The notes: generated from the sequence alone by a model not told the origin. DNA of 64,000 bases from Actinomycetota bacterium (GCA_046263085.1 JBHELK010000119.1:18109-82108); one strand, 5' to 3'. Numbered from the stretch's first letter, positions 12,345-49,977 are shown. Numbers and translations are program-made.

Positions 12345-12353
12345 GGACCCACG

Positions 12354-23772: not shown

Positions 23773-23851
23773 GAGCGGCCATCGTCGCCGAGGGGCTCGT
23801 GTCCGTCAATCTCCTTGACCAGATTTCGAAGTGGCGTAATGAATGCGGGCG

Positions 23852-24775: not shown

Positions 24776-24943
24776 CTCCGATCAGCTCCTTGGTTCGGCG
24801 GTTGGCGGCATCCTACCGAGAGGAGCCAGGCACTCGGTCCCGGGCTCGTCGGAGGCAGCCCCGGGACGGTGCCATGCAGCGATTCCTCGTCGACTGTGAG
24901 CGCGGTCACAGACGGGATGAGTCCTCCTCTCTATTCTCGCGAC

Positions 24944-29730: not shown

Positions 29731-29786
29731 GCCTCTCTGGTTCGCTGCCGGCTTCCCCTTTCCTTCCGGCGCTCGCGACCGTCTGT

Positions 29787-29800
29787 TGTGCAGGTGCACA
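29787..29800. promoter_or_regulatory. Palindromic putative operator, site 1: TGTGCAGGTGCACA
   Basis: Perfect inverted repeat in the divergent intergenic region, 57 nt upstream of the minus-strand gene start at 29730 and 109 nt upstream of the plus-strand gene start at 29909. Confidence 0.6.
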
Positions 29801-29829
29801 GTTCTGCGCCACACGAACACTCGCTGACT

Positions 29830-29843
29830 TGTGCATGTGCACA
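29830..29843. promoter_or_regulatory. Palindromic putative operator, site 2: TGTGCATGTGCACA
   Basis: Second perfect copy lies 43 bp from site 1 in the same divergent promoter region. Confidence 0.6.
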
Positions 29844-29908
29844 GAGGAATGCGCACTTCGCTCCGCGTAGTCCATCTCGAGACATCCATCCGCCATACAG
29901 GAGAGACC

Positions 29909-32839: not shown

Positions 32840-32894
32840 CCGGTCCGGCGATCGGTCCAGACCGCCCTCTGATCACGAGGGAGGGAGCCAGGCG

Positions 32895-33818
32895 ATGAGC
32901 GGTCCGGGGTCTGCGGCTGGGACTGACACGATGCGGGCGGTCAGGGTGCATCCCCCCGGCGGCCTTGACGGGGTGCGGCTCGAACGGATCGAGATCCCCC
33001 GGCCCGGAGAGGGCCAGGCGCTCGTGCGTGTGCATGCCGCGGCGATCACCCGCGACGAGCTGGGGTGGCCCGTCGACCGCCTGCCCGCGATCCCATCGTA
33101 CGAGCTCTCCGGGGTGGTCGTGGACGTAGTCGGCGGCGAAGATCTCGTGACCGTCGGGGACGACGTGTACGGGCTCGTTCCCTTCAACCGTGACGGCGCC
33201 GCGGCCGAGTACGCCGTCGTTCCGGCGAACGCGCTGGCGCCGAAGCCTAAGGGGCTCGACCACGTGGAAGCCTCCGCCCTGCCCCTGGCCGCCCTCAGCG
33301 CCTGGCAGGGACTGGTCGTGCACGGTGGGCTCCAGGACGGTCATCGTGTGCTCATCCACGGCGCGGGCGGCGGCGTCGGTCACCTGGCGGTGCAGCTCGC
33401 CCGCCACCGCGGCTCGCACGTGACCGGAACGGCGTCACCCGCCACGGCGGGCCTGGCGCACGAGGTCGGCACACACGAGGTCGTCGATCGCACGAAGGAC
33501 GGGTGGGAGGAGTCCATACAGCCGGTGGACCTCGTCTTCGACACGGTGGGCGGCGAGGTGCTGGCTCGGTCGGCGGGCTTCCTCCGCGACGGCGGCCGGG
33601 TGGTGTCGGTTGCCGAGCCCGGGGGCACGGACGTCGTGTACTTCGTGGTCGAACCGGATCGAGATCAGCTCATGGAGTTCGCCCGCCTCGCCGACCGGGG
33701 GGACCTCCGCCCGGCCATCGACTCCGTGTTTCCGCTCGTCGAGGCTCGCGAGGCCTTCGCGCGGAGCATGGCGCCCGCGAAGCATGGCAAGGTGGTCATG
33801 CGTGTCGTGGACGCGTAG
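32895..33818 (+). CDS. Zinc-independent quinone oxidoreductase / MDR superfamily NAD(P)H-dependent reductase
   Basis: GAGGGVGHLAVQLA cofactor motif in an MDR fold. There is no signal peptide. GAGGGAGGGAG RBS. It lies downstream of the M28 gene in the same orientation. Confidence 0.8.
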   Translation: MSGPGSAAGTDTMRAVRVHPPGGLDGVRLERIEIPRPGEGQALVRVHAAAITRDELGWPVDRLPAIPSYELSGVVVDVVGGEDLVTVGDDVYGLVPFNRDGAAAEYAVVPANALAPKPKGLDHVEASALPLAALSAWQGLVVHGGLQDGHRVLIHGAGGGVGHLAVQLARHRGSHVTGTASPATAGLAHEVGTHEVVDRTKDGWEESIQPVDLVFDTVGGEVLARSAGFLRDGGRVVSVAEPGGTDVVYFVVEPDRDQLMEFARLADRGDLRPAIDSVFPLVEAREAFARSMAPAKHGKVVMRVVDA

Positions 33819-33827
33819 CCAGGAACA

Positions 33828-33843
33828 GAAGGCCTCGGCCTTC
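33828..33843. terminator. Hairpin GAAGGCC-TC-GGCCTTC between convergent genes
   Basis: 7-bp perfect stem read from the sequence. It sits between the oxidoreductase stop (33818) and the minus-strand gene stop (33881). Confidence 0.4.
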
Positions 33844-33880
33844 CGCGAGCCGCGGGCCGCGGGCCGCGGGCCGCGGGCGG
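33843..33880. repeat. Heptanucleotide tandem repeat (CCGCGGG)x4-5
   Basis: CCGCGAG CCGCGGG CCGCGGG CCGCGGG CCGCGGG read directly. It is intergenic, immediately 3' of the minus-strand propeller gene. Confidence 0.7.
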
Positions 33881-35017
33881 TTAACCGCTCGAGGGGATCG
33901 GACCGGTGTACTGGAAGATGTCGAAGCTCCGCTGGTAGTCCGTGGCGTACATGATCCGGTCGGTGATCCAGTAGACCCCTGAGGTCATCCCGCCCGCCGG
34001 CACGTACCAGCCCAGCTCCTCGATCTGGCCGTCGGCCTTCACGTTCAGGATCCGCACACCGTGCTCGTAATACGCCATGGCCACGAGACCGCCATCGCGA
34101 TACGCGGGGTGCGTGTCGAACCAGTGGGCGCACCACTGGGCGACAGGCGGGAACTCACCGTCGGTCGGCGAGCCGCTGCTCAGGCCCCACTCCGCGATCT
34201 TCGTGAACTCGCCCTGTTTGATCATGCGGCCGTTCTCGTCGTACGTCGGCCAACCGTTCGTGGCGTCGAAGGTCCAGAACTTCGCGGCGGGCTTGTTGCA
34301 GTCGCTCGGCACGGTGTTGCCGACCTCACCCCCCACGAGCAGGAACTTGTCGGTCCCCTGGTGCGGCCACAGGTTGCCGTGCGTGAACTTGTTCTGCCGA
34401 GGCCCCTGACCGATCAGCACCGGGTGCTCCGGATCGTCTCGGGCGTCGAGCAGCAGGACCGGATCGGTCGACGTCACGATGATTCCCGGCTTGATCTCGG
34501 TGACGTCGTGCGAGTTGGTCACCGGAGTGCCCGTCGTCCACCGGTGCGTCGACGTCACGGGGTGCGCCGGATCGCGCAGGTCCACGATCACACCGTTCGA
34601 CGCGTACGCCCACGTGCAGTCCAGGACACACGTGATGGTGTGGGACGACCTCCCGTGCGTGGAGATGACCTTCGGGTTGGCCTTGTCGGTGACGTCGATG
34701 ACACTGTCGTCGATCAGCAGGATCTTCCCGTTCGTGTCGACGTCCTCCTGGGCGAACTGCGGCGTCTGCTGGAAGGGAAGGACGCCGGTCAGCTTGGGGT
34801 TCAGCGGATCCTTGATGTCGTAGATCATGAGTGCCGTCGACGTCGTGAGGTAGAACCAGTCGCCCAGGCGCCTGGCGCCAGCTGAGTCGCTGTTCAGCGG
34901 GACGGTCGTCACCCACTCGACGTTCTTGCCGAACCCGACGGCGTCGGCCGTGGGCGCGACCGAGAGTCCGGAGATCGCGAAGATCAGGAGGCACGCCAGA
35001 ACGAGCGCTTTTTTCAA
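33881..35017 (-). CDS. Secreted beta-propeller protein (LVIVD-like)
   Basis: TTG start at 35017, preceded by AGGAGGATCTCGG. This yields the signal peptide (M)KKALVLACLLIFAISGLSVAPTADA. Blades include IYDIKDPLNP, VIDVTDKANP, IVDLRDPAHP and LLDARDDPEHP. Confidence 0.7.
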   Translation of the reverse strand: MKKALVLACLLIFAISGLSVAPTADAVGFGKNVEWVTTVPLNSDSAGARRLGDWFYLTTSTALMIYDIKDPLNPKLTGVLPFQQTPQFAQEDVDTNGKILLIDDSVIDVTDKANPKVISTHGRSSHTITCVLDCTWAYASNGVIVDLRDPAHPVTSTHRWTTGTPVTNSHDVTEIKPGIIVTSTDPVLLLDARDDPEHPVLIGQGPRQNKFTHGNLWPHQGTDKFLLVGGEVGNTVPSDCNKPAAKFWTFDATNGWPTYDENGRMIKQGEFTKIAEWGLSSGSPTDGEFPPVAQWCAHWFDTHPAYRDGGLVAMAYYEHGVRILNVKADGQIEELGWYVPAGGMTSGVYWITDRIMYATDYQRSFDIFQYTGPIPSSG

Positions 35018-35028
35018 CCGAGATCCTC

Positions 35029-36435
35029 CTAGGTGTTCCTGCCGGTGGCGGCCCTGCGGCACAGGTACCGCTCAGCGGCGGCAACAGGGTCGTTGACTCC
35101 GAGTTTGGCCAGCCAGGATGCGCGGAACTGCGCCTTCGACGGCACGAGGTTCTTCGACGGGTCGTACTTCAGGATGTCGACGCCGCGCTCGTAGTCGACC
35201 GAGTAGATGTAGTTCTTGTCGATCCAGTACGCAGACGACGTGGAGCCCACGACGGGCTGGAAGAACCCCAGCTGCTTGATCTTCCCGGTCTTGCCGTCGA
35301 CGTCGAAGATGCGTGTGCCGTGCTCGTACCATCCGTTCGCGGTGACGATGTGGTCGTGGGTGCTGTTGTCGGAGCTGATGTCGAACCAGTGTCCGGAGCA
35401 TCCCAGGCCGTTCACCTCGGGGTTGCCGTCCTGGTAGTTGCCCTGGACGGGGCGGAAGACGTCGATCGGCTTGAACGGCTTGGCTCCGGGCTGATCGAAG
35501 TCGCGCAAGGAGTAGGTGGTGAACGGACCGCTCCCCGAGTTGCACGAAGGCGAGAAGTTCGTCTCGCCCTCGCCGAGCAGCAGCTCGCCGGGCCGGAGGT
35601 TCGGATCGGCCTTGTCCTCGTCGGTGATCCGCGGCTTGTACTCGGCCGCGTAGGGCCGGAGGTTGTTGTGCTGGTAGGCCGTCTTCTTGACGCCCATCTG
35701 CGAGGCGTCGCTGTGCGCCACCTCAACCGGTTGAGCCGGATCCGAAACGTTCAGCGCGTAGATCGGCGTCGTGTCGGTCCAGATGAGTCCGGTGGCGTCG
35801 CGGGTCACGTGATGACCGGTGCGGCCGCCGGCGGCGCTCTTCCACTCCCCCACGTACGTCGGGTTGGCCTTGTCGCGGAGGTCGTAGATCTTGCCCTCCG
35901 ACCCGTAGGCCCAGTCGCACGTCGGGCTCGCGTCGACGCACTCGATCGTGTGGTTACCCTGGTGCGCCGTCTCCTTCCCCTCGACCGTCAGGCTCACGAG
36001 CCCGCCGGGCAGGTCCTGCACGTGGATGACGATGAGATAGAGGATCCCCTCGAAGTCGCTCATCAGGACCCAATGGCCGTCGGCGGAGACCGCCACGTCC
36101 TCGTTCTCCCAGTTGTGGGTGTAGAGCGCGCCCATCAGCAGCGGAACGGCCGGGTTCGTCACGTTGTAGACGCTCAGGCCCTTCGCCGAGCTCACGTACA
36201 GGCGCTTCACGGCGCCGACCTGGACCACCCGCGCGCTGACCCCGGGGGATTCGTTGGCCAGCGTCGCCACGTAGCTGATGTTCGGCGACATGAAGCCGCC
36301 CGGGCCCGGGTCGATGTAGGTCAGGGGAGCCGGCTGGGCGCCCGCGGGACTCAGGGGACCGGCCTGCGTGGACGGCCCTGCGACCACGCCGAACAGGACA
36401 AGAGCGGGGATCAGCGCGAGTGCGCGTCGCAGCAC
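35029..36435 (-). CDS. Secreted beta-propeller protein (LVIVD-like)
   Basis: GTG start at 36435, preceded by AAGGAGGA. This yields the signal peptide (M)LRRALALIPALVLFGVVAGPSTQA. Blades include VYNVTNPAVP, IYDLRDKANP and LNVSDPAQP. The gene is 12 nt upstream of the next propeller gene and is operonic with it. Confidence 0.7.
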   Translation of the reverse strand: MLRRALALIPALVLFGVVAGPSTQAGPLSPAGAQPAPLTYIDPGPGGFMSPNISYVATLANESPGVSARVVQVGAVKRLYVSSAKGLSVYNVTNPAVPLLMGALYTHNWENEDVAVSADGHWVLMSDFEGILYLIVIHVQDLPGGLVSLTVEGKETAHQGNHTIECVDASPTCDWAYGSEGKIYDLRDKANPTYVGEWKSAAGGRTGHHVTRDATGLIWTDTTPIYALNVSDPAQPVEVAHSDASQMGVKKTAYQHNNLRPYAAEYKPRITDEDKADPNLRPGELLLGEGETNFSPSCNSGSGPFTTYSLRDFDQPGAKPFKPIDVFRPVQGNYQDGNPEVNGLGCSGHWFDISSDNSTHDHIVTANGWYEHGTRIFDVDGKTGKIKQLGFFQPVVGSTSSAYWIDKNYIYSVDYERGVDILKYDPSKNLVPSKAQFRASWLAKLGVNDPVAAAERYLCRRAATGRNT

Positions 36436-36521: not shown

Positions 36522-38609
36522 CTAGGAGGGCCCCACGGACGAGAAGCCGCAGCTCGTGCCGAAGCAAGCCCGGGCGAAGACCACGGAACCGGAGGGAACC
36601 GCGCCCACGGCGCCGGTGAAGGATCCGTCGGCGGCAACGACCGCCGGGGTGCTGTAGCTCACCTGAGCGGGATCCGTCCCGGCCGGCGCCACGCCGAGGC
36701 TGACGGTGCGGTCTGGGATGGCGTACGAGGTCCAGGTGGCGCCGTCGGCCATGTTGCCGACCGTCTGCCCGCCGACCGTCGTCCCGAAGCTCGTCACGCC
36801 CGCGCTGTATGCGGCGTAGATCGAGGGGGTGGTGACCCCGGTGGTCTGGGTCGTGGAGATCACCGCCCCGGGCTTGATGTCCGGGGCGAAGGACGCGCCG
36901 ATCGGGACGCGCACGGTGATGGTGTTCGAGGCGGTGTCGAACGAGCCGTCGAGCCACGCGAGGTGGGAACAGTTGTTGACGGCGACGAGGGTTGCGCAGT
37001 TGCCGCGGAGCCGGAACGACCGGCCGGCGTGGGTGACGGCTCCCTCGGGGTCGTCCACCGTGCCGGTGCTGCCGACGTTCGAGAGCTTCGCCTGCACCTG
37101 GTACTGCTTGCCGTTCACGAGGAACGCCCACGTGTACACGAATGTCTCCGGCGCCGTCGCCGGCACCGTCGGGTCCGGACCCGGCAGCTTGCTCACCTTC
37201 CAACGGAACTGGAGGTACGGGAGTTGGGCCTCCGGCTGGGAAACGCTCGCCTCGGTGAGGTCCGTACCGTCCTGCGCCCCAGTGGTGGGCTCGAGGGCGC
37301 CGTCGCCTGCGGGGTCGGTTGCCGCCACCACCGGCGCGGTCTCGCCGGCGAACCCGGCGGTCCCGCTCACATTCCCCGCGGCCGATGCGACGAGCGAGGT
37401 GACGCCGTTGGCGGCTGCCGGATCGCGGGGCAGGGGCCCGTTCCACTTCAGGACGTCGAACCCTCGCGTGTAGTCGACCACGTAGACCACGCGGTCCGTG
37501 ACCCAGTGCGCCGCGGACGCCCAGCTGGCGAAGGACTGGAAGAACCCCACGTTGGTGAGCTTGCCGTTCCCGTTCACGTAGAAGAACCGGGTTCCGTGGT
37601 CGTAGTACGCCTGCGCGAAGATCCCGCCGTTGTGGAAGGACGGGCTCGCCTCGAGCCAGTGCGCAGAGCACCCGGCGCCGTCCGCGGGGGTGTTCCCGTC
37701 GAGCATGTAGCCGTTCCTGGTCTGCCACCGGTCGGCCCTGCTGTACGTGCCGCCCTGCCAGCCGGTCATGTCGTAGACGTACGTCGAACCGTTCCCTGTG
37801 CCGTTGGCGCCGCAGCGCCCCGTCAGGTTGGTTTCCGTTCCCACGAGCATGAACCGGTCGGTGGCCTGGTTCGCCCAGCTCGTAGAGTGCATGTATTCGC
37901 TGGTCTTCTGCCCTGCGCCCATGCACGCGAGCTTCTTGGGATGGGCCGGGTCGGTGGTGTCGAGGATGGCGCCCGGGCAGTTCGCGCCGCTCCCGGAGGA
38001 CACGACGACGATGCCGGGGGCGTCCTCGCGGACGTCGTGGCCCGCGGACACACCGGCGAGGGTTGCCCAGTTCCCGACGAGGGCCGGCTTCGTGGGGTCG
38101 TGGAGATCGATGATGTTGCCGCTCGAGCCGTACAGGTAGGTGCAGTCCGCCACGCAGGTCATGGTGTGCTGCGCCAGGCCCGAGACGGAGGCGACCTCGA
38201 CGGGCTTCGTCTTGTCGGTGACGTCGTAGATGTGCAGGAAGTTCTGTCCCGGGCCCACGATCGGGACGTTCCCGGTCTGCGAGTACACGAGGATCTTGCC
38301 GTTCGTGGCGACGTCCTCGTTCTCGTACTGGCTCGGGACCGGCGTGATGCTCACGAGCTGTGGGTCCTCGGGGTTCGAGGCGTCGTAGATGGAGATGCTC
38401 CGCCAGCTGGTGATGTAGAAGTAATGCCCCACGAGCTTGGCTCCGGTGGCGCCGTACACCTCGAATGGCACGAACCGAACGTGCTCGACCCACGACGACG
38501 CAACGCCCTGCGCCGGCGCGTCCGGCCCCGCCCGCCCGATGCCGGGTGACATCACGGCGACGGTGAGCGAAAGCGACACGACCGTCGCGAGGATCCTGAG
38601 CTTCTTCAT
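36522..38609 (-). CDS. Secreted LVIVD beta-propeller protein with a C-terminal ~300 aa conserved module of unknown function ('ACFGxxCG' module)
   Basis: Signal peptide MKKLRILATVVSLSLTVAV. The N-terminal propeller carries blades ISIYDASNPEDP, LHIYDVTDKTKP, IIDLHDPTKP and ILDTTDPAHP. The C-terminal module reads QYQVQAKLSNV...RLRGNCA...LAWLDGSFD...VRVPIGASFAPDIKPGAV...ARACFGTSCG. Confidence 0.75.
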   Translation of the reverse strand: MKKLRILATVVSLSLTVAVMSPGIGRAGPDAPAQGVASSWVEHVRFVPFEVYGATGAKLVGHYFYITSWRSISIYDASNPEDPQLVSITPVPSQYENEDVATNGKILVYSQTGNVPIVGPGQNFLHIYDVTDKTKPVEVASVSGLAQHTMTCVADCTYLYGSSGNIIDLHDPTKPALVGNWATLAGVSAGHDVREDAPGIVVVSSGSGANCPGAILDTTDPAHPKKLACMGAGQKTSEYMHSTSWANQATDRFMLVGTETNLTGRCGANGTGNGSTYVYDMTGWQGGTYSRADRWQTRNGYMLDGNTPADGAGCSAHWLEASPSFHNGGIFAQAYYDHGTRFFYVNGNGKLTNVGFFQSFASWASAAHWVTDRVVYVVDYTRGFDVLKWNGPLPRDPAAANGVTSLVASAAGNVSGTAGFAGETAPVVAATDPAGDGALEPTTGAQDGTDLTEASVSQPEAQLPYLQFRWKVSKLPGPDPTVPATAPETFVYTWAFLVNGKQYQVQAKLSNVGSTGTVDDPEGAVTHAGRSFRLRGNCATLVAVNNCSHLAWLDGSFDTASNTITVRVPIGASFAPDIKPGAVISTTQTTGVTTPSIYAAYSAGVTSFGTTVGGQTVGNMADGATWTSYAIPDRTVSLGVAPAGTDPAQVSYSTPAVVAADGSFTGAVGAVPSGSVVFARACFGTSCGFSSVGPS

Positions 38610-38628
38610 CTCATGCCTTCCTGTTCGA

Positions 38629-40683
38629 TCAGGGCGCGACCGAGCGGTATCCGCAGCTCGCGCCGAAGCAGGCCTGGGCGAACACCTGGGAACCTGCCGG
38701 GACGCTCGGCACCTGGCCGGTGAAGGTCCCGTCGTCGTTCAGCGTGACCGGGATGGTGTAGTCGACCGTCGATGGATCCGTCCCGGCGGGAGCGACGCCC
38801 AGCATCACGGTGGCCTTCGGGATCGTGTACTGATCCCAGTCGATGTCGTCCGCGACGGTGGTGTTCGTCACCAGCACCGAGTTCGCGGCGTACAGCGTCG
38901 GCAGGCTGGCCGACGGCGTGAGGACCGCGCCGGGCTTGATGTCGGGGGCGTACGAGGCGCCGACCGGCACGCGGACCATGATGGTCTTGTTCGGGACGTC
39001 GATCGAGCCGTCGAGCCACGCGAGCGTCGGGCAGTTGTTGAGCACCCCGACCACCGCGCAGTTCCCGCGGAGCCGGAAGGAACGGCCGAGCCTCGTCACG
39101 GGGCTCGTGGGGTCGTCGGCGAGGACGGTGCTGGCGATGTTCTCGACCTTGGCCTGCACGGCGTAGTCCTTGTTGTTCGCCTTGAAGTACCAGTTGTAGG
39201 AGGTGGTCTCGGGGATCGCCCCGGACGTGGTGTCCGGCAGCGGGAGGTTCGTCACCTTGAACCGAAGCTCCACGTACGGCAGTTGCGCCTGCGGCTGTGA
39301 GAGGCTCGCCTCCACGAGGTCGGCGCCGGCCGCGTCGGAGACCTGCGCAACCCCTGGGCCGTCACCCACGGCGTCGGTGAAGGTGGTCGGGCTCGTCTCG
39401 CCGGCGAAGGTGGCGGTACCCGTGACCGTGGCCCCGCTGCCCGAGGCCGTCGCCACGAGCTGGGTCACGGCGTTGTCGGCCGCCGCGTCGTGCGGCAGGG
39501 GCCCGTTGTACTTCAGGACGTCGATGCCCCTCGTGTAGTCCACCGCGTACACGACACGGTCGGTGATCCAGTGCACTGCCGACGTCGACCCGCCGAACGG
39601 GGTGAAGAACCCGACGGGTGTGAGCTTGCCGTTGCCGTTGACGTAGAAGAACCGGGTCCCGTGCTCGTAGTAGCCCTGGGCGAAGATGCCGCCGTTGTGG
39701 AAGGAGGGCGCCGCCTCCAGCCAGTGAGCGGAGCATCCGAGCACGTTCACCGGGGGGTTCCCGTCGAACAGGTAGCCGTTCTTGCCCTGCATGCGGTCCG
39801 TGCGGTGGTACGTGCCGCTCTCCCACCCGGTGGTGTCGTAGACGTAGGTGGCGCCGTTGCCGGTGGCGTTCGCGCCGCACCGGGTCTTCTCGTTCGTCTC
39901 CGAGCCGACCAGCATGAATCGGTCGGTGGCGTTGTTCGGCCACGTTTCCGAGTGCATGTACTCGGACGTCCTCTGGGTGCTGGCGATGCACGAGAGCTTC
40001 ACCGGGTTCACCGGGTCCGTGACGTCGAGGACGGCGCCCGGACAGTTCTGTCCGCTGCCCGAGGAGACGACCACGATCCCCGGCGCGTCCTCACGGACGT
40101 CGTGGCCCCCGGAGACGCCCGCCTTCTGGGCCCAGTTGCCGACGAGCGCCGGCTTCGTGGGGTCCCGCAGGTCGATGATGTTGCCGCTCGAGCCGTAGAG
40201 GTAGGTGCAGTCGGCGACGCACGTCATCGTGTGCTGAGCGATGCCGGCGACGTTTGCGATCATGACAGGGTTCGCCTTGTCGGTGACGTCGTAGATCCGC
40301 AGGTGGTTCGACCCGCCGCCGGCGAGGGATGCGCTGGTCTCGCTGAAGACCAGGACCTTGCCGTTCGTGGCGACATCCTCGTTCTCGAACCGGTGCGGGT
40401 CGCTCGGGTCCTCCTTGGCGAAGGGCACGATGCTCACGAGCTGAGGGTCCTCGGGGGTCGACGTGTCGTAGATCGACAATGACCTCCACCCCGTGACGTA
40501 GTAGTAGTGGCCGACGAGGCGGGCGCCGGTGGCGCCGTACACCTCGAACGGAACGAACTTCACGTGCTCGACCAGGGTCGAGGTGACGCCCTGGGCCGGG
40601 GCATCCGGGCCGGCCGCCACGACCTGCGAGCCGGTGGGTACCGCCACGAGAGCGAGGGTGAGGATCAGCGCCAGTCGTCGCAT
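38629..40683 (-). CDS. Secreted LVIVD beta-propeller protein with the C-terminal 'ACFGxxCG' module (tandem paralog of 36522-38609)
   Basis: Signal peptide MRRLALILTLALVAVPTG. The protein is collinear with, and highly similar to, the downstream paralog throughout. C-terminus ...AQACFGASCGYRSVAP. Confidence 0.75.
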   Translation of the reverse strand: MRRLALILTLALVAVPTGSQVVAAGPDAPAQGVTSTLVEHVKFVPFEVYGATGARLVGHYYYVTGWRSLSIYDTSTPEDPQLVSIVPFAKEDPSDPHRFENEDVATNGKVLVFSETSASLAGGGSNHLRIYDVTDKANPVMIANVAGIAQHTMTCVADCTYLYGSSGNIIDLRDPTKPALVGNWAQKAGVSGGHDVREDAPGIVVVSSGSGQNCPGAVLDVTDPVNPVKLSCIASTQRTSEYMHSETWPNNATDRFMLVGSETNEKTRCGANATGNGATYVYDTTGWESGTYHRTDRMQGKNGYLFDGNPPVNVLGCSAHWLEAAPSFHNGGIFAQGYYEHGTRFFYVNGNGKLTPVGFFTPFGGSTSAVHWITDRVVYAVDYTRGIDVLKYNGPLPHDAAADNAVTQLVATASGSGATVTGTATFAGETSPTTFTDAVGDGPGVAQVSDAAGADLVEASLSQPQAQLPYVELRFKVTNLPLPDTTSGAIPETTSYNWYFKANNKDYAVQAKVENIASTVLADDPTSPVTRLGRSFRLRGNCAVVGVLNNCPTLAWLDGSIDVPNKTIMVRVPVGASYAPDIKPGAVLTPSASLPTLYAANSVLVTNTTVADDIDWDQYTIPKATVMLGVAPAGTDPSTVDYTIPVTLNDDGTFTGQVPSVPAGSQVFAQACFGASCGYRSVAP

Positions 40684-40710
40684 CTACGTTTCTCCTGTCG
40701 TCCTGGTCGT

Positions 40711-42279
40711 CTATGCGACGACGTTCTGGGTCACGGTCACGGGCTGGTAGGCGTCGTCGCCGGCCCAGGTCGCGGTGACCTGGTGAGGGCCGGCGGGAAG
40801 AGCAAGCGGAGCTGAGAACGTGCCGTCCGCCGCGGTGGTCGCGGTGACCGACGTGCTCCCGGAGCTCACCGTCAGGGTGATCCCGGCGAGGGGCTTGTTG
40901 ACCCACCCGAGGTAGGTCCACACGGCGTAGCGGTCGAGCTTGCCGGTGATGGCCCCGCCGGTGGCGGCCGCGTTCACCTGGAGGCGGGCCACCTTCTTCG
41001 GCATCGCTCCGGTGTAGGTGAAGACGTCCATCCCGCGGGTGATGTCCTGCGTGAAGACGTACCGGTCGAATTTCGGATCGTCGAAGCGGGTCCACTTCGA
41101 GGACCACGTGTTGGCGCCCTCCGGCAGGAAGTTCCCAACCGTGTTGCCCCACGTGGTGGGCCCGCCGAACGTCGTGCCCTTGAACTCCTGGTACTCACCG
41201 CCGGAGGCCTTCGTCGGGAACTGCATGTCGGCGACGAACGTGCCCGCCGAGTAATGGGCCACCGACATCAGGAACCGCTCCGCCTGGAACGTGAGCACGT
41301 GGATCGTGCAGTTGCCCCACTGCCGCTGCGCGGTGGGGTCGGTGAGGCTGTAGAACGGCGCGAACCAGTGCCCGATCTCCTTCGGGTTGCTCAGGCTCGC
41401 CCCCGGGATGTACTTGCCGCTGATGTCGTAGATGTGGGCGCCGCCGCCCGGGCAGGTTTCATTGGTGAGGCCGCCGCCGCGCTCGTCGGTGAGGACCACG
41501 AACGATGAGTCCGGCGAGGGGTCGGCCTGGTGCCCGATCGAGACGTTCCCGTCGTGGACGTTCTTGATGATGGTGGGCTTCGCCGGGTCCGAGAGGTCGA
41601 CGATCTGCAGGTTGGTGCTCGACTGAGGGCACGCCGAGTAGCCGATCGTCGGGTTGTTCGGATCGACCGTGAGGTCGTGGCCACAGATCTGCGGCGCCTG
41701 CCCCAGGACCTTCGGGTTCCTCGCATCCGAGTAGTCGACGATGTAGGTGGGGAGCAGCGTGTAGAAGTACTGGTCGTTGATGATCGTCACGTTGTGGGCG
41801 CCGTCCACGCCCTCGAAGTGCGACAGCAGCTGCGGATTGGCCACATCGGTGATGTCCACGATGTCCACACCGATACCGTTCGTCCCGCCACCGTGGTCGA
41901 CGGTCGAACCGAGGTTGTCGGTGGCGAGCAGCACGATGTTGCGCCGCGGGTTCACCTGGATGTCGCCCTCCCAGTTGAATCCTGGATCGACGAAAGCGCC
42001 GGCGATCAGCGGCAGGTCCGGATTGGTGATGTCGATGATGTTGAACCCGTGGCCCATGTCGCCGACCACGGCGTAGCGCTTCAGCGCCCCGTCGGACAGC
42101 TTGCGCTCGAAGAACTCGATGTCGCTGCCGACATCGGCCGGGACGTTCCACTTCCAGTCCATGTTGTGCTTGCCCAGGGCACCGGCGGCGGGAATGACGG
42201 CCCCGGCCGGCTGGCCGGCGAACGTCGCAGTCAGGATGGCCGCTGCGACGAATGCGAGTGCTGTCTTCCTCAAGGTCAT
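40711..42279 (-). CDS. Secreted LVIVD beta-propeller protein with C-terminal Ig-like/big domain
   Basis: Signal peptide MTLRKTALAFVAAAILTATFAG. Blades include FNIIDITNPDLP, VDIVDITDVANP, LQIVDLSDPAKP and AHIYDISGK. The C-terminus has a Thr-rich beta domain. Confidence 0.75.
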   Translation of the reverse strand: MTLRKTALAFVAAAILTATFAGQPAGAVIPAAGALGKHNMDWKWNVPADVGSDIEFFERKLSDGALKRYAVVGDMGHGFNIIDITNPDLPLIAGAFVDPGFNWEGDIQVNPRRNIVLLATDNLGSTVDHGGGTNGIGVDIVDITDVANPQLLSHFEGVDGAHNVTIINDQYFYTLLPTYIVDYSDARNPKVLGQAPQICGHDLTVDPNNPTIGYSACPQSSTNLQIVDLSDPAKPTIIKNVHDGNVSIGHQADPSPDSSFVVLTDERGGGLTNETCPGGGAHIYDISGKYIPGASLSNPKEIGHWFAPFYSLTDPTAQRQWGNCTIHVLTFQAERFLMSVAHYSAGTFVADMQFPTKASGGEYQEFKGTTFGGPTTWGNTVGNFLPEGANTWSSKWTRFDDPKFDRYVFTQDITRGMDVFTYTGAMPKKVARLQVNAAATGGAITGKLDRYAVWTYLGWVNKPLAGITLTVSSGSTSVTATTAADGTFSAPLALPAGPHQVTATWAGDDAYQPVTVTQNVVA

Positions 42280-42288
42280 TCTCCGGTC

Positions 42289-43989
42289 TTACGTCTGGAC
42301 GGATTGGGTGACGCTGGCCTGCTGGAACGTGTCGTCGCCCGTCCAGGTCACGGTGACCTGGTGCGACCCGGCGGAGAGTCCGAGGTTCGCCGAGAACGTG
42401 CCGTCGTCGGCGGTCGTGGCCATCACGGTGACGCCGCCGCCCGTGACCTCCACGCTCCGTCCGGCGAGGGACTTGTTGACCCATCCCTGGTACGTGAGGA
42501 CGGCGTAACGATCGAGCTTGCCGGTGGCCACGCCTCCGGGCGCGGCAGGATCGACAGCGAGGCGCGCAAGTTTCTTCGGCAGCGGCCCCGTGTACTTCAG
42601 GATGTCGAACCCCCGTACGAGCCCGTTCGTGAAGACGTAGCGACCCGTGTCCGGATCGGCGGCGGAAGCGTCGAACGGCCACCACTGCGACGCGTTCACG
42701 AAGTCGCCCTCGGCGAGGAAGTTGCCCGTGGTGTTGCCCCAGGTGGTGGGCCCGAGCCCCCGGACGGCGCTGCACGGAGGGGTGACCTCCGGGCGGCAGG
42801 TCCAATCCCGCTTGGGGTTTCTATTCCATTCGGTATAGAGACCACCGCTCGACTTCGTGGCGGCAGTCGGATCGCCCACCCAGCTTCCGAGCGTGTAAAC
42901 ACCGGCGGTGAAGATCATCCGCTCGGCCTGGAACTGCCAGCTGTGGGTCGTGCAGCTGGCCCAGTTCGGATGGTTCGAATCCGGGTCGGGATCAGTGGAC
43001 TCGATCGTGTTGAAAGGCGCGAACCACTTCCCCATCTTGATCGGGTTCGTGAGACTCGCCCCGGGCATGTACTTCCCGCTGATGTCCCAGAAGTGGATTC
43101 CTCCACCCGGGCACTGGAAGTACGTGTAGCCGGTCGCGGGCCCGATCCGATAGTCGGTGACGCCGATGAACGAGGAATCCGCGGATGGATAGACCTCGTG
43201 GGCGAGGCTGATCTCCGGATCTTGCTTCTGGACGATGACGACCGGATGGGCCGGATCCGTGGTGTCGAGGATCCCCCACTTGGCGGGCTGCGCGCAGAAG
43301 CCGACGTAGGTCCGGCCCGGGATGTTCGGATCGGGATAGAACTCGTGGCCGCAGAGGTTGTTCAAGCCCGCGTCTGCGAGCTTCGGCTTCGCCGGGTCGG
43401 CCACGTCGATGATGTGCGTGGGAAGGGTGGTGTACAGGTATCGGTCGTCGATCCACCGGATGGTGTGCGGCCCGTTCGAGTCGCCCTGCCCCAGAGCCGC
43501 CACCTGGCCGCGGTACACCGGATTCGTGACGTCGGAGATGTCGACGATGTCGACGCCGTTCGAGCCCCCGTGGCCGAGGTTCGGGTCGGTCGGAGGCCAC
43601 GCGGATCTGCCCGGTGCCTCGATGGAGTACGCCACGAGCTTGCGGGTGGGATTCACCGAGACCCACGAGTGGTAGTTGAAGCCCACCGTCACGTAGCGGC
43701 CCACGGTCGAAGGCTCAGCCGGGTCGGTGATGTCGATGATGTCGAACCCGAAGTTGTGAGCGACCACGGCGTACCGGGAAAGCGAGCCGTTCGACTCCTG
43801 CCGCTCGAAGAAGTCGAGCGCGTTGCCGCCCGAGCTGACCTGGTTGTTGACCCAGGTCACGTTCTTCGAGCTCACGATGCCCTCGGCGGGAAGACCGGCC
43901 GGCTGTGCGCCGGCGGGGATCGCCGCCGTGCCGCCGAGCATGGCGGCGGCGAGCGCCGCGACCCCCAGCTTGCGCACCGAGCCCGTCAT
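42289..43989 (-). CDS. Secreted LVIVD beta-propeller protein with C-terminal Ig-like domain (tandem paralog of 40711-42279)
   Basis: Start trimmed to MTGSVRKLGVAALAAAMLGGTAAIPAGA (signal peptide). The protein is collinear with its paralog (FDIIDITDPAEP, VDIVDISDVTNP, IHFWDISGK). The ATG overlaps the upstream stop in an ATGA arrangement. Confidence 0.75.
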   Translation of the reverse strand: MTGSVRKLGVAALAAAMLGGTAAIPAGAQPAGLPAEGIVSSKNVTWVNNQVSSGGNALDFFERQESNGSLSRYAVVAHNFGFDIIDITDPAEPSTVGRYVTVGFNYHSWVSVNPTRKLVAYSIEAPGRSAWPPTDPNLGHGGSNGVDIVDISDVTNPVYRGQVAALGQGDSNGPHTIRWIDDRYLYTTLPTHIIDVADPAKPKLADAGLNNLCGHEFYPDPNIPGRTYVGFCAQPAKWGILDTTDPAHPVVIVQKQDPEISLAHEVYPSADSSFIGVTDYRIGPATGYTYFQCPGGGIHFWDISGKYMPGASLTNPIKMGKWFAPFNTIESTDPDPDSNHPNWASCTTHSWQFQAERMIFTAGVYTLGSWVGDPTAATKSSGGLYTEWNRNPKRDWTCRPEVTPPCSAVRGLGPTTWGNTTGNFLAEGDFVNASQWWPFDASAADPDTGRYVFTNGLVRGFDILKYTGPLPKKLARLAVDPAAPGGVATGKLDRYAVLTYQGWVNKSLAGRSVEVTGGGVTVMATTADDGTFSANLGLSAGSHQVTVTWTGDDTFQQASVTQSVQT

Positions 43990-45764
43990 CGGTCCGCCGG
44001 AGCCACGATCACGGATCCCTGCATAGACGTGTCGGTCGCCGACGACGTCGACGTATAGACCCACGTGCCGGACTCGTCCTCGAAATCAGCGGAGTGCGAC
44101 TTGCGCGGCGGAATGTCGCCGTTGGAGTTGATCTCGTCCCCCGGGAGGATGACCGAGCCCTCGGTCGTGACGACCACGGCCCGCTCTGCCGTTACGTTGT
44201 GGGGGACGGTGTCCTCGTTCACCCACAGGACCTTGACGTCGCGCGGGATCGTGATGACCTGCGGCACGAACTGACCGTCGATGATCTCCACGGTGTACGT
44301 GTCCGGCGTGTCCTGGACGAACGTGACCCGATAGACCGAGCCGTGGAAATCGGCGACGTACATGGCGCCGTCCGGTCCGAACACCACGTCGATGGGGGCG
44401 CCGCCCGTCATGAACGCCCGGGTCCAGGCCACGGTGCCGTCCTCGTTGAAGTGGACCTGTTGGATCTTGTGGCCGCTCGGCTCGGGAGGAACGGCGTTCG
44501 TGTTCCAGATGCTGCCCCACTCGGCCACGAAGAGGTCGCCGTCGTAGCGCTCCGGGAAGTCGTCGCCGCGCTCGAACGCGAGGCCGGACGTCCCGCTGTG
44601 CGCGCTGAGGAACTTGACGGGGCGCAGGATGTGGTCGATCGGAGTCCGAGGCGGAGCCGCTGGGCAGTGGCCGAACTTGGCGATCGTCGCCTCGTTCAGG
44701 TTGTCGTCCGGGTCGTAGATCTCGGGGTGCTCATGGCCACCCGACGGCTGCGGCCAGGCGTTGACGTGCTGGCCGTAGAGGCAGGACGGGAACCCCGCGT
44801 CGTCGATGACCGGGCCATAGATCGGGTTGCCCTGTGGGTCGGTACCGACGACGTGCTGGTCACAGATGTTGGTTCGGTACAGGGGCTCGTTGGAGGCGGG
44901 GTTGTCCGAGCCGTTCATCGGCGTGTAGAGCGAGCAGGGATCGCCGGGCTGGGTGTCGACGTCGTAGATGTTGCGGAAGCCCCGGGCGGCGAGGACCTCG
45001 TCGTCGTCCAGAACGCCGGGGTCGTCGTAGCCGTTGGCGTCGACGGTGACGTCCTTCAGCAGGTCGACGTCGCGCCACGCGGGATTGACGCGCAGGATCG
45101 ATCCCGTCCAGGGCTGGACCTCCTGGGTCGGGCATGCGAGCGGCGAGGCCGGCTCGGGCCCGCATTCGGTTCCGTCGTCGGTGGCACTGCCCGTCGCGAC
45201 GTACAGCATGCCGTCAGGGCCGAACACCATGCCGTTCGTCTGATGGCGGCCGTTCGGGATGTCCTTGAGGATCGTCGCTCGCGTCTCATACGTGCCGTCG
45301 CCATCCGCGTCGCGCAGCGCGAGGATGCTCCCCTTGTACGCGGTCGTGTCGTTGTCGGAGACGTACATCGTGCCGTCGGGCCCGAAGACCATCCCGATGA
45401 CCTGGCCGAAGCCGTCGGCGACCGGGATCGGAGCCCCGCCCGCCACCACGCCGTCGACCACGTCGAAGGAGTAGACGGCGCCGTTCGAGAGCGCCTGGGG
45501 CCCGTCGCCGGCTGCAACGCCCTGCACCGACGTGACGAAGAGCTTCCCGCCCGGTCCGAACGTGAGGCTGGTGGCGAGATCGCCCGGGGGAAGCTGGGCG
45601 AAGGTGGAGACGCCGAACCCGACCGGCGGAACGAGGGCCCCGGCCAGCTCGACGGGATCGTGGGCCTGGGCCGGTGCCTGGACGAGACCGGGACCGGCGA
45701 GGGTCACGAGGATCACGATCGCTCGGGCGAGTCCGCGAAACCGCGTGCGTCCGTTCCCCTTCAC
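43986..45764 (-). CDS. Secreted soluble glucose/sorbosone dehydrogenase-like (SGDH/PQQ-dependent-like) beta-propeller protein with C-terminal cupredoxin-like domain
   Basis: GTG start at 45764, preceded by GGGAGGAG. Signal peptide (M)KGNGRTRFRGLARAIVILVTLAGPGLVQAPAQA. Repeated GMVFGPDGTMYVSDND / GMVFGPDGMLYVATGS / VVFGPDGAMYVADFHG blades are typical of the GSDH family. The C-terminal ~110 aa have a plastocyanin-like pattern (VPHNVTA...), but the Cys ligand appears to be replaced. Confidence 0.7.
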   Translation of the reverse strand: MKGNGRTRFRGLARAIVILVTLAGPGLVQAPAQAHDPVELAGALVPPVGFGVSTFAQLPPGDLATSLTFGPGGKLFVTSVQGVAAGDGPQALSNGAVYSFDVVDGVVAGGAPIPVADGFGQVIGMVFGPDGTMYVSDNDTTAYKGSILALRDADGDGTYETRATILKDIPNGRHQTNGMVFGPDGMLYVATGSATDDGTECGPEPASPLACPTQEVQPWTGSILRVNPAWRDVDLLKDVTVDANGYDDPGVLDDDEVLAARGFRNIYDVDTQPGDPCSLYTPMNGSDNPASNEPLYRTNICDQHVVGTDPQGNPIYGPVIDDAGFPSCLYGQHVNAWPQPSGGHEHPEIYDPDDNLNEATIAKFGHCPAAPPRTPIDHILRPVKFLSAHSGTSGLAFERGDDFPERYDGDLFVAEWGSIWNTNAVPPEPSGHKIQQVHFNEDGTVAWTRAFMTGGAPIDVVFGPDGAMYVADFHGSVYRVTFVQDTPDTYTVEIIDGQFVPQVITIPRDVKVLWVNEDTVPHNVTAERAVVVTTEGSVILPGDEINSNGDIPPRKSHSADFEDESGTWVYTSTSSATDTSMQGSVIVAPADR

Positions 45765-45856: not shown

Positions 45857-47491
45857 TCAGACCTGGATGGTGGTGACCCTCGTGGCGCAGTTCGCACCGA
45901 AGCAGGCCCTCGCCCACACGTCCCAGGACCCGGGACCGGGCGCGGACAGGACCCCGGCGAAGCGCCCGGTGGAGTCCGCGGTCGTGGTGACGGCGAACAT
46001 CACCTGGCCGAGCGGCGTCCCGGCCGGCGCGATCCCGATCGAGACCTGCCGATCCGGGATCCGGTAGGTGAACGACGTGTCGCTGCCTCCCCACGCCGCC
46101 TGGTCGGCCGTCACCGTTTCGGCACCGGGCGCGATCTGGTACCCGGTCTGGATCGTGGAGAGGTCGCCGGCGGGGCTCTGGTTCCTCGTCAGCACGGCCC
46201 CGGGCACGATCTCGGGCGTGGCGCCGAGCGGCACCTTCACACGGATCGTGTTCGTGGCGACGTCGAAGGAGCCGGTGAGCCAGGCCATGTGCGTACAGGT
46301 GCCGGCGGGGGGGACCGTCGTGTCGATGCACTCCCTGAGCTCGAAGGCATGGCCCGTATTGCCGACTCTGCCCTGAGGATCGGACCGGTCCGTTGCCGAT
46401 AGGTCCGACAGTTTCGCCTGCACCTGGAATTGTTTGCCGCCCGTCCGGAACGGGATCGTGTAGCGAACAGCTTCAGGGAAGCTGCCCGACTCGGGCAATC
46501 CCGTGACGTGCCACTCGAAGAAGACCGAGGGGATGGCGGGATCCGGCTGATAGGCGCTCGCGCCGACCAGGTCGACGCCCGTGTCCTGGGCAGTCTGAGC
46601 GGTGCCGGGCGCGTCACCCGCCGGATCCTGCGCGAGGGATACGGGCGACTCGCCCGCGAACACCGCGCCCCCGGACACGGAGACCTGCGACCCGGATGCG
46701 GTTGCGTTCAGCGAGGGTACCGATGTCGAGGACGACCCAGGCGCAAGGACGCGGACCACGCCGGCATGGCCTCCTCCCCCGGCAGTGCCGTGAACCTTGC
46801 AGTAGTAGAGGTAGACGCCCGGTTTCAGGAAGGTGTGGGAGTACGTCTCTCCCGGCTGCCAGCAGACCTGGGCCGCCGTGGGGCACTGCGGGCTGGAGTC
46901 CCAGGACCCGTCGCTGGCGGTGACGGAGTGCGCCACCTGGCCCGTGTTCCGCCACTCGACGGTGGTTCCCGCCGGTACGGTGAGGTCCTTCGGAGCGAAG
47001 AAGTTGTCTCCGGCGTTCACCTCGATGTCGCCGCCGGACTCCGGCACGGGGGCCGGCCGCGGCAGGATCTGCAGCGAGCCCGTCATGTACGGGTGGATCG
47101 TGCAGATGAACGTGTAGAGCCCTGGGGGCACCTGCTCGACGGGCACCGGGGCGCTCTGACTCACGCCGACGAGGTCGCTGATGAACCAGGGTTGCCCGTC
47201 CGGCCGATGTTCAAGTGACTCGAGGTTGTGAAGGTCACCGTCGAGATTGGTGTGAACCAGGCTGTCCCCCTCGACGATCTGCAGCGGCGGCAAGGGGGCG
47301 ATGTGCGTGTCCCCGGGTACGTACGTGTAGTTGTCGGTGAGGATCTGGTGCGTGGTGGTGTCGCTGCCGGTGGGACTCGAGACGACCGCCGCCGATCCCG
47401 GACCGCCCGCCCAGGCGCGGGCCGACGTCACCGCTCCGGGAACGCCGAGGGCGATCGCGAAGGCAACGACGAGCCGCAACGTCCTCACCAC
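45857..47491 (-). CDS. Secreted protein with two cupredoxin (type-1 blue copper) domains and the C-terminal 'ACFGxxCG' module
   Basis: GTG start at 47491 or 47488, preceded by GGGAGGTG. Signal peptide VVRTLRLVVAFAIALGVPGAVTSARAWA. First cupredoxin: H...YTFICTIHPYM (Cys-His-Met ligand spacing). Second: AHSVT...YLYYCKVHG. The C-terminus (QFQVQAKLSDLS...THMAWLTGSFD...RVKVPLGATPEIVPGAVL...ARACFGANCATRV) is homologous to the module in 36522 and 38629. Confidence 0.7.
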   Translation of the reverse strand: MVRTLRLVVAFAIALGVPGAVTSARAWAGGPGSAAVVSSPTGSDTTTHQILTDNYTYVPGDTHIAPLPPLQIVEGDSLVHTNLDGDLHNLESLEHRPDGQPWFISDLVGVSQSAPVPVEQVPPGLYTFICTIHPYMTGSLQILPRPAPVPESGGDIEVNAGDNFFAPKDLTVPAGTTVEWRNTGQVAHSVTASDGSWDSSPQCPTAAQVCWQPGETYSHTFLKPGVYLYYCKVHGTAGGGGHAGVVRVLAPGSSSTSVPSLNATASGSQVSVSGGAVFAGESPVSLAQDPAGDAPGTAQTAQDTGVDLVGASAYQPDPAIPSVFFEWHVTGLPESGSFPEAVRYTIPFRTGGKQFQVQAKLSDLSATDRSDPQGRVGNTGHAFELRECIDTTVPPAGTCTHMAWLTGSFDVATNTIRVKVPLGATPEIVPGAVLTRNQSPAGDLSTIQTGYQIAPGAETVTADQAAWGGSDTSFTYRIPDRQVSIGIAPAGTPLGQVMFAVTTTADSTGRFAGVLSAPGPGSWDVWARACFGANCATRVTTIQV

Positions 47492-49887: not shown

Positions 49888-49977
49888 CGGAAAGAAGGAG
49901 TGCTGCCGGGGCAATCGACGGATGTCCGTGCGCCGCCAGGAGGATTCGGCCCGTCCCTCGCGAAGAAAGTGGAAGAC

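Follow-up and report, generated by a model that had tools for sequence, protein, structure and literature searches.

Old, diverged LVIVD-type propeller paralogs, putative secreted metalloenzymes, in an Actinomycetota gene cluster

Two adjacent pairs of propeller genes in a 64,000-nt stretch of Actinomycetota DNA (the window) are old and diverged, have been stably maintained, and belong to a larger cluster of LVIVD propeller genes. The nearest solved relative of their products is Sb-PTE, the binuclear-Mn phosphotriesterase, or haloalkylphosphorus hydrolase, of Sphingobium sp. TCM1 (PDB 5HRM, 5IOJ). The explanation that we find best, and hold to be somewhat better than an even bet, is that of an old family of secreted LVIVD propellers that would be Sb-PTE-like metalloenzymes, positioned by their tails.

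Results

A Family of Eight Propellers

There are eight genes for seven-bladed LVIVD-type propellers between 28.2 and 44.0 kb, in at least three subfamilies, and no further copy was found elsewhere in the window. Two of the proteins, A1 and A2, end in a tail that we call the T-module.

A1, 36522-38609, minus strand: 695 aa; seven-bladed LVIVD-type propeller (aa ~35-397), then T-module (aa 398-695); predicted to be secreted
A2, 38629-40683, minus strand: 684 aa; paralog of A1 with identical architecture
B1, 40711-42279, minus strand: 522 aa; LVIVD-type propeller and C-terminal Ig-like domain
B2, 42289-43989, minus strand: 566 aa; ancient paralog of B1 with identical architecture
P35k, 35029-36435, minus strand: fifth paralog, A-clade, without tail; 31-32% identity to A1/A2 (E 1e-43 to 1e-48)
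P34k, 33881-35017, minus strand: sixth paralog, A-clade, propeller only; 34-37% identity to A1/A2 (E 1e-69 to 1e-73)
P30k, 29909-31597, plus strand: seventh paralog, B-clade; 29% identity to B1 (E 3e-35)
P28k, 28234-29730, minus strand: eighth paralog, the most divergent

The first-pass annotation had described the two pairs A1/A2 and B1/B2, and these are indeed four intact, co-directional genes whose translations contain the peptides it quoted; its account of the locus was incomplete, as it missed the four further paralogs at 28234-36435. The coding-frame GC3 of the four ORFs is 0.87-0.94 (window GC ~70%), which shows them to be real genes. A protein identical to A1 is found in an Actinomycetota metagenome-assembled genome (MAG) at NCBI, under the name LVIVD repeat-containing protein, and the AF2 model of A1 has a pLDDT of 84.6. 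NCBI annotates B2 as a 591-aa version starting at GTG 44064; translation probably begins at the ATG at 43989, which shares an ATGA with the stop codon of the gene upstream. The Ig-like domain of B1 has sub-threshold matches to Big_3_5 and CarboxypepD_reg-like models. P35k is supported by its GC3 frame plot and preceded by a Shine-Dalgarno-like AAGGAGG. P34k starts at a TTG with AGGAGG before it, its ORF running on to a GTG at 35062.

A1 and A2 align end to end, with 446 identical residues out of 701 (64%, E = 0 in BLASTP), and B1 and B2 with 244 out of 542 (45%, E 8e-143); at the nucleotide level, identity is 71% and 62%, respectively. Hence "very similar", as the pairs had been called, is fair for A1/A2 and generous for B1/B2. 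The A and B pairs are distant homologs of one another (22% identity, E 5e-8).

Membership in Pfam LVIVD (PF08309) was taken as a whole-protein score of at least the gathering threshold of 20.2 bits. Five of the eight paralogs reach it, with scores at or barely above it: A1 24.9, A2 20.2 (exactly at threshold), B1 29.4, B2 39.2, and P28k 31.8 bits. P30k, P34k, and P35k have no Pfam match and are tied to the other paralogs by BLASTP. The propellers are built from repeats of about four β-strands, as is characteristic of the LVIVD family. The first description of LVIVD repeats was from cell-surface proteins of Methanosarcina (PMC2447325); they are treated as cell-surface or attachment modules, with no assigned function (PMC2447325; bioRxiv 10.1101/2022.05.06.490989). 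All the paralogs here resemble these proteins in being, by prediction, of secreted or surface type. They differ in combining propeller with T-module or propeller with Ig-like domain, architectures confined to an uncultured Actinomycetota lineage, and in that three of them have diverged beyond the reach of the Pfam model. Six of the eight also match weakly the choice-of-anchor B model (TIGR04312), a domain that is likewise one of secreted proteins with variable anchoring ends. As the best of these matches (P30k) scores 54 bits against an NCBIfam cut-off of 100, the others scoring 16-28 and A1 and P35k having none, we rejected membership in this family.

The Duplications Are Old

Both pairs had been put down to recent expansion within the operon, which the synonymous sites contradict. 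At conserved amino acid sites, codons match between A1 and A2 with a frequency of 0.649, against 0.571 expected by chance (z 3.3), and between B1 and B2 with a frequency of 0.612, against 0.584 (z 0.9). Synonymous sites are thus ~80% randomised in the first pair and fully randomised in the second (Nei-Gojobori pS 0.46 and 0.48). The highest ungapped DNA stretches between copies span 180-300 nt at 80-84% identity, none exceeding 84%, and neither pair has unsaturated synonymous divergence or long near-identical tracts.

These data bear first on the possibility that the duplicates are a mis-assembled single gene or strain variants. The source is a metagenome-assembled genome, and strain mixtures can make spurious repeats. 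However, nucleotide identity between copies is far from the near-identity that an artefact would leave, the longest exact common words being just 26 nt (A1/A2) and 17 nt (B1/B2), which excludes it; moreover, the ORFs of the copies are all intact, with separate start contexts and stop codons, and separate orthologs of the B copies are found in independent assemblies. We therefore give a misjoin practically no credence, and the paralogy stands.

Recent tandem duplication of both pairs within the operon, followed by ongoing diversification, would fit the adjacency and collinearity of the copies. It would also fit the tree, in which A1 and A2 are sisters (86% bootstrap; 100% for the clade A1+A2+P0003) and so each other's nearest known relatives, and the single A-type gene found in each of the relatives with long contigs. 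On the other hand, it is common in the lineage for A-clade genes to be multi-copy or tandem (in a genome scan using an alignment of 10 close sequences as query), and other MAGs repeatedly have an A-type gene in tandem with a P34k-like one. For B1/B2 the recent origin is already refuted: B1 and B2 are not mutual closest relatives, as ~57 proteins of other organisms are nearer to B1 (81-46% identity) than B2 is, and each copy has orthologs in other metagenomic contigs at 70-81% identity, compared with 45% between the two. In contig L046 the orthologs of B2 (70%) and B1 (76%) are not adjacent but separated by two other genes, the contig carrying orthologs of B2, P30k, the M28-PKD peptidase gene (see following), B1, and P28k at 69-76% identity. 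L047 carries orthologs of B1 and P28k at 81-82%, and in both contigs the P28k ortholog (75-82%) lies directly downstream of that of B1. The B1/B2 split long predates the divergence of the sampled relatives. With synonymous sites nearly or fully randomised and no DNA tract above 84% identity, we regard recent duplication of the two pairs as improbable; that of A1/A2 is lineage-specific yet old.

A last possibility is that the pairs are very old and that occasional gene conversion has kept A1 and A2 alike, making their sister relationship misleading. The tail alone does not recover this relationship (29% bootstrap), whereas the propeller does (85%), and identity is uneven between them (57% and 72%). 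However, pS stays fairly even over the length of the gene (0.38-0.62), the longest exact match is 26 nt, and the gap between propeller and tail is more simply explained by stronger constraint on the propeller. As neither the pS windows nor the ungapped DNA matches contain a low-divergence tract, conversion between A1 and A2 was rejected, and concerted evolution seems to us very improbable.

Both copies of each pair are intact and under purifying selection, with pN < pS in all sliding windows of A1/A2 and in 13 of 16 of B1/B2; this makes functional divergence probable, rather than redundancy. Regional dN/dS was computed (Nei-Gojobori), but its values are uninterpretable since dS is saturated at GC3 ~0.9: apparent ω is 0.1-0.7 in the windows of the A pair and up to 1.8 in one of the B pair, which does not count as evidence of positive selection. 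The suggestion that the tails mark diversifying specificity holds for A1/A2, in view of the lower identity of their tail, but not for B1/B2, in which no other part is conserved as well as the Ig-like tail.

Relation to a Metal-Dependent Phosphotriesterase

A profile of the eight paralogs has a single match in PDB, Sb-PTE (E 1e-15, ~300 columns), which is also ranked first by Foldseek; the propellers thus share detectable homology and the fold with this type of hydrolase. In the profile alignment, H148, H191, and H317 of A1 correspond to H258, H317, and H475 of Sb-PTE, and these three His are invariant in 8/8 paralogs. Among 37 A-clade sequences H148, H191, H241, H317, E98, and D99 are invariant and E259 is conserved in at least 90%; in 82 B-clade sequences four His are each conserved in at least 96%. 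The metal ligands of Sb-PTE are reportedly, in work by Mabanglo and colleagues of 2016, Glu-201, His-258, His-317, His-389, Glu-407, and His-475, and its sequence has residues of the right type at these six numbers. The remaining ligands, one His and two acidic residues, were matched by spacing, outside the HMM alignment: H241 and E259 are 18 residues apart, as are H389 and E407 of Sb-PTE, and the first Glu falls no more than 3 columns from the ENED motif. An hhalign comparison of the A-clade with Sb-PTE and an HMM of the B-clade alone gave short local matches with a one-blade shift, the alignment register being ambiguous because the blades repeat. B2 lacks Glu at either acidic position (FNYHSW, compared with FNWEGD in B1, and TDYRIG, compared with TDERGG), the latter motif retaining just the preceding Asp.

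Sb-PTE differs from the paralogs in several ways. Identity is only 14-15%, it is of proteobacterial origin, it has neither T-module nor Ig tail, and it is known to act on man-made organophosphate triesters, compounds that the propellers described here are unlikely to use.

The usual assumption for LVIVD proteins would make these propellers non-catalytic adhesins or ligand-binding scaffolds, the diversity of paralogs reflecting different binding partners. Against it, the strongest and most specific relative is an enzyme, the neighbouring genes encode enzymes (peptidases, copper proteins), and the His and acidic residues at blade starts are invariant across subfamilies that otherwise share just 20-30% identity, a pattern that marks a metal or active site rather than a binding surface that varies. 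We consider surface proteins of this kind a serious though unlikely alternative, and favour, from residue conservation and homology, metalloenzymes that are secreted and have diverged in specificity, rather than inert adhesins. Each propeller would then be an extracytoplasmic metalloenzyme of the Sb-PTE kind, with a metal centre on one propeller face that His and acidic residues hold from the inner ends of successive blades. Differences between paralogs in the loops surrounding this site would give them different substrates.

Adjacent paralogs are as such nothing unusual: secreted repeat proteins often come in multigene families, and existing annotation already names the present genes as LVIVD repeat proteins. 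The interest lies in the family, which is without assigned function: the link to Sb-PTE, its one characterised relative, together with His conserved across subfamilies, provides a testable metalloenzyme hypothesis. The link may also indicate from what natural family Sb-PTE, which degrades flame retardants, was recruited.

Gene Order and Neighbours

Genes adjoining the propellers encode peptidases and copper-protein-like products.

31598-32839, plus strand: M28 peptidase with PKD domain (Pfam), directly downstream of P30k; predicted to be secreted
43986-45764, minus strand: GSDH/DUF7133-like propeller with C-terminal cupredoxin (Pfam), directly upstream of B2
45857-47488, minus strand: double cupredoxin (plastocyanin/azurin type) with C-terminal T-module (Pfam Copper-bind, 46.6 bits); predicted to be secreted
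47485-49818, minus strand: N-terminal T-module and lysyl-oxidase-like C-terminal region (Lysyl_oxidase E 0.0033, below cut-off); predicted to be secreted
49900-51561, plus strand: subtilase (S8; Pfam Peptidase_S8, 108.7 bits), divergent from the cluster

Nine co-directional genes follow one another on the minus strand from 49818 down to 33881, including six of the eight propellers and three copper-protein-like secreted proteins. The first, the lysyl-oxidase-like gene, has a GTGA overlap with the next. Intergenic gaps along the run are -4, 92, -4, 9, 27, 19, 86, and 11 nt, with Shine-Dalgarno-like motifs; around the pairs these are the ATGA overlap between B2 and the gene upstream, then 9 nt (B2-B1), 27 nt (B1-A2), and 19 nt (A2-A1). 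No terminator-like site was found on the minus strand. The earlier placing of the pairs within an operon agrees with this layout, which is consistent with co-transcription of the run as a single unit. Against PDB, the GSDH-cupredoxin protein has marginal matches only and the lysyl-oxidase-like C-terminal domain has none. The N-termini of all cluster members are positively charged and hydrophobic, resembling signal peptides, and invariant Cys pairs were also counted as evidence of secretion.

An Uncatalogued Tail

The tail of A1 recurs in three other proteins of the locus.

36525-37418, minus strand: T-module of A1, ~290 aa; putative DOMON/CBM9-like β-sandwich and Ig/Fn3-like domain, 4 invariant Cys
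38632-39483: T-module of A2
45860-46750: T-module of the cupredoxin protein
48829-49755: T-module of the oxidase-like protein

This ~290-aa tail is an uncatalogued, rare domain. In A1 it matches no Pfam family at E <= 1, DOMON and EB_dh included, and it has 505 representatives among 1.84 billion proteins. The copy of the cupredoxin protein is 39-42% identical to the tails of A1 and A2. An alignment of 61 sequences shows four invariant Cys and no conserved Met, His, or Lys, and a role as haem-binding cytochrome was accordingly rejected as the primary reading. It thus differs from DOMON, EB_dh, and CBM9 domains (the comparison set being the ethylbenzene dehydrogenase γ subunit, NxrC, the cytochrome domain of cellobiose dehydrogenase, the DOMON domain of dopamine β-hydroxylase, and CBM9) in lacking a sequence-model match and haem-ligating residues, having four invariant Cys instead, and in being fused also to non-redox partners. 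Elsewhere these partners include PD40 propellers and subtilases. Its exchange between propellers, cupredoxins, subtilases, and oxidase-like proteins is what one would expect if it served for targeting or docking. By means of their tails, the T-module in A1/A2 and the Ig-like domain in B1/B2, the enzymes would be brought to a shared target, e.g., the cell envelope or an extracellular polymer; the tails would not be expected to take part in catalysis.

A broader and quite tentative reading is that the locus at 28-50 kb is a conserved extracellular battery of Sb-PTE-like metallo-propeller hydrolases, peptidases, and copper redox proteins, several of them tied together by the T-module, which may dock them onto one shared target, envelope or polymer, or relay electrons between them. 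If so, the LVIVD family, up to now regarded as adhesin-like, would consist largely of metalloenzymes, and Sb-PTE would have been recruited from it recently. Parts of the locus recur elsewhere. The pair formed by P30k and the M28-PKD gene is also adjacent in L046 (69% identity), and in L044 a homolog of the GSDH-cupredoxin gene (37%) adjoins a B1-like gene. The related cluster of L044 also contains an S8 gene; that of the window probably starts at the ATG at 49978.

The Two Propeller Pairs and Their Paralogs

The four propeller genes of the first-pass annotation lie where it placed them, all on the minus strand, and the peptides it quoted are found in their translations:

36522-38609, minus strand, A1, 695 aa
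38629-40683, minus strand, A2, 684 aa
40711-42279, minus strand, B1, 522 aa
42289-43989, minus strand, B2, 566 aa

In a window with a G+C content of ~70%, these are real genes, since GC3 in their reading frame is 0.87-0.94. The NCBI annotation gives B2 591 aa, with a GTG start at 44064 (minus strand) that lies within the upstream gene; a more plausible start is the ATG at 43989 (minus strand), as it forms an ATGA overlap with the upstream stop and a signal-peptide-like stretch comes next.

A1 and A2 are indeed collinear and similar (446 of 701 aa, 64% identity), and B1 and B2 are paralogs as proposed (45% aa identity, E = 8e-143). The two pairs are distant homologs of each other (22% identity, E = 5e-8). 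All four proteins score at or just over the threshold of the Pfam LVIVD repeat model, and both B proteins have an Ig-like domain at the C-terminus (sub-threshold score). An assembly artefact, which would show as near-identity of the copies, is not what one finds: nucleotide identity in codon alignments is 71% for the A pair and 62% for the B pair, the best ungapped DNA stretches reach only 80-84% across 180-300 nt, and the longest exact common words are 26 nt and 17 nt, respectively.

The set of four is correct but understates the family, as the window holds eight propeller paralogs. No further copies were found elsewhere in it. The remaining four, named after their positions and grouped by BLASTP, are:

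28234-29730, minus strand, P28k, outlier
29909-31597, plus strand, P30k, in a clade with B1 and B2
33881-35017, minus strand, P34k, in a clade with A1, A2, and P35k
35029-36435, minus strand, P35k, in a clade with A1, A2, and P34k

Identity among the subtypes of the A1/A2/P34k/P35k clade is 30-37% (BLASTP). A 33-nt motif recurring across the propeller genes (28724-48991, 14 copies, 70-82% identity) was rejected as a separate repeat element; it reflects, at the DNA level, the blade signature (I/V)xD(I/V)(S/T)DPxxP.

Ages of the Duplications

Both pairs had been taken for products of a recent expansion. At synonymous sites, the proportion that differs is 0.46 for A1/A2 and 0.48 for B1/B2. Because a GC3 of ~0.9 leaves third positions little room to differ, these values were calibrated separately, by comparing the use of the same codon, at sites where the amino acid is kept in both copies, with the expectation from codon usage. 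The same codon is found at a frequency of 0.649 in A1/A2 (0.571 expected, z = 3.3) and of 0.612 in B1/B2 (0.584 expected, z = 0.9); the clearly ancient pairs A1/P34k and B1/P30k behave alike. Hence, randomisation of synonymous sites is about four-fifths complete in A1/A2 and total in B1/B2. Sliding-window dN/dS values, the regional check originally suggested, can be computed but are unusable as evidence of selection.

For B1/B2 the notion of recent expansion is wrong. Some 57 foreign proteins (81-46% identity) are nearer to B1 than is B2, which ranks ~58th at 45%. One relative's contig, L046, has co-directional orthologs of B2 (70%), P30k (69%), the M28-PKD peptidase (69%), B1 (76%), and P28k (75%), and the nearest relative, L047, has a B1 ortholog (81%) directly followed by a P28k ortholog (82%). 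Given this gene content, each B-clade paralog has its own ortholog; because the B1 and B2 orthologs are not adjacent in L046, the adjacency of B1 and B2 in the window says nothing about recent duplication. P30k and M28-PKD form a conserved gene pair (29909-32839, plus strand, in the window; 1482-4456 in L046; 69% orthologs). The locus has been rearranged, since in the window this pair lies on the strand opposite to the main run and, compared with L046 and L047, a block A2-A1-P35k-P34k is placed between B1 and P28k.

The A duplication is lineage-specific, though old, so that "recent" is at best loosely true of it. A1 and A2 match proteins annotated "LVIVD repeat-containing protein", encoded on a contig of 84,328 nt from a metagenome-assembled genome labelled "Actinomycetota bacterium" at NCBI. 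Among 5.8 billion sequences searched, none is nearer to A1 than A2; the next nearest, P0003, has 62% identity. The lineage-specific reading follows from the grouping of A1 with A2 (neighbour-joining bootstraps of 86% for A1+A2 and 100% for A1+A2+P0003) and from the single A-type gene, in unrelated contexts, of the relatives with enough flanking DNA (P0022, P0015, and P0003). The metagenome-assembled genome with P0003 has three A-type genes, dispersed, and propeller-only A-clade genes stand in tandem, as pairs or triples, at no fewer than seven other loci (L006, L011, L016, L027, L028, L032, and L036). Multiple A-type copies are typical of the group. In one relative, genes with TIR_2, HEPN_Apea, and ApeA_NTD1 domains (L003, 2733-7383) adjoin the single A-type gene; they resemble an anti-phage defence islet and have no relation to the propeller family.

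The tails had also been read as marks of diversifying specificity. This fits the A pair, where identity is 72% in the propeller and 57% in the tail and the minimum of non-synonymous divergence falls in the region of the H191 blade (aa 155-214). Relaxed constraint explains the A1/A2 tail divergence equally well. The reading does not fit the B pair, where conservation runs the other way, being highest in the last blade and Ig-like tail (aa 397-516) and lowest in the N-terminal blades.

Likely Function of the Propellers

The family of these propeller genes is already known and annotated; modest added interest comes from homology to a metalloenzyme, together with the conservation of candidate ligands, and from an undescribed tail module common to several proteins. 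The metalloenzyme is Sb-PTE, the phosphotriesterase of Sphingobium sp. TCM1, for which Mabanglo et al. in 2016 reportedly described the ligands Glu-201, His-258, His-317, His-389, Glu-407, and His-475; these positions of the Sb-PTE chain do hold residues of matching type. In a profile alignment, A1 H148, H191, and H317 align with His-258, His-317, and His-475, and the spacing between A1 H241 and E259 (18 residues) equals that between His-389 and Glu-407. The title of PDB entry 5ioj gives Sb-PTE a binuclear manganese centre.

H148, H191, and H317 (A1 numbering) are invariant in all eight paralogs. Among 37 A-clade sequences, no variation is seen at H148, H191, H241, H317, E98, or D99, and conservation of E259 is at least 90%; in 82 B-clade sequences, four histidines reach a conservation of at least 96%. 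Each conserved histidine of A1 sits where a predicted strand begins, as would be expected if these residues lined the central channel on one of its faces. Because of the alignment, the conserved histidines, and their strand-start positions, secreted metalloenzymes are favoured over passive adhesins, at roughly even odds or a little better. The odds are held at that level because the blade repeats make the alignment register ambiguous, because B2 has no Glu at either acidic position, and because the LVIVD family has no characterised member (PMC2447325).

The T-Module and the Gene Run

The tails of A1 (398-695) and A2 (401-684) are homologous to the C-terminus of a cupredoxin protein and the N-terminus of an oxidase-like protein (34-42% identity). 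The copies of this T-module, each of ~290 aa, are:

36525-37418, minus strand, in A1
38632-39483, minus strand, in A2
45860-46750, minus strand, in the cupredoxin protein
48829-49755, minus strand, in the oxidase-like protein

The module has no Pfam match, and an exhaustive profile search of 1.84 billion proteins gives only 505 representatives, most of them stand-alone secreted proteins of ~300 aa. Its fusion partners among 37 longer proteins are PD40 propellers (13), cupredoxins (7), Ig-like domains, PA+S8 peptidases, LVIVD propellers, and PQQ-like propellers. Four cysteines, invariant in 61 sequences, would fit two extracytoplasmic disulfides, and, by structure prediction, the module may consist of a DOMON/CBM9-like sandwich and, C-terminal to it, an Ig/Fn3-like domain.

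Nine minus-strand genes form a run between 49818 and 33881; the gaps are -4, 92, -4, 9, 27, 19, 86, and 11 nt, and a Shine-Dalgarno-like motif is present for most of the genes. The tight gaps, ATGA and GTGA stop-start overlaps, and lack of any terminator-like site found on the minus strand of the run are consistent with one long operon. Upstream of the propellers it contains:

47485-49818, minus strand, secreted 777-aa protein with N-terminal T-module and weak lysyl-oxidase-like C-terminal region
second of the three upstream genes, cupredoxin protein with C-terminal T-module
43986-45764, minus strand, fusion of a GSDH/DUF7133-like propeller with a C-terminal cupredoxin, next gene upstream of B2 (ATGA overlap)

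The cluster is flanked by the M28-PKD peptidase and an S8 subtilase, and all its proteins (propellers, copper-protein-like proteins, and peptidases) have signal-peptide-like N-termini. The association of propellers with copper proteins recurs on an unrelated metagenome contig, L044, where a 37% GSDH-cupredoxin homolog of the same architecture (11986-13644) adjoins a B1-like gene; L044 also carries an S8 gene, two further LVIVD genes, and a gene for a T-module protein that stands alone.

For the C-terminal half of the 47485-49818 (minus strand) protein, the lysyl-oxidase hit stays below threshold (E = 0.0033); this half contains a histidine-rich motif, WHETHAHLHVKD, and has no sequence relative found in the PDB. 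P0120 (776 aa, N-terminal T-module) has the same length and layout. G+C across ~24-50 kb (24001-50000) is 0.65-0.69, below the flanks (0.70-0.73), and GC skew is positive at ~34-50 kb, coinciding with the long minus-strand gene run. HNH-endonuclease domain proteins are common mobile or selfish genes in actinobacteria, and the C-terminal part (~24900-26119) of the open reading frame at 23843-26119 (plus strand) has an HNH-endonuclease-like reading (…CDGHHIVHLAHGG…LLCRRHHRLIHQ…).
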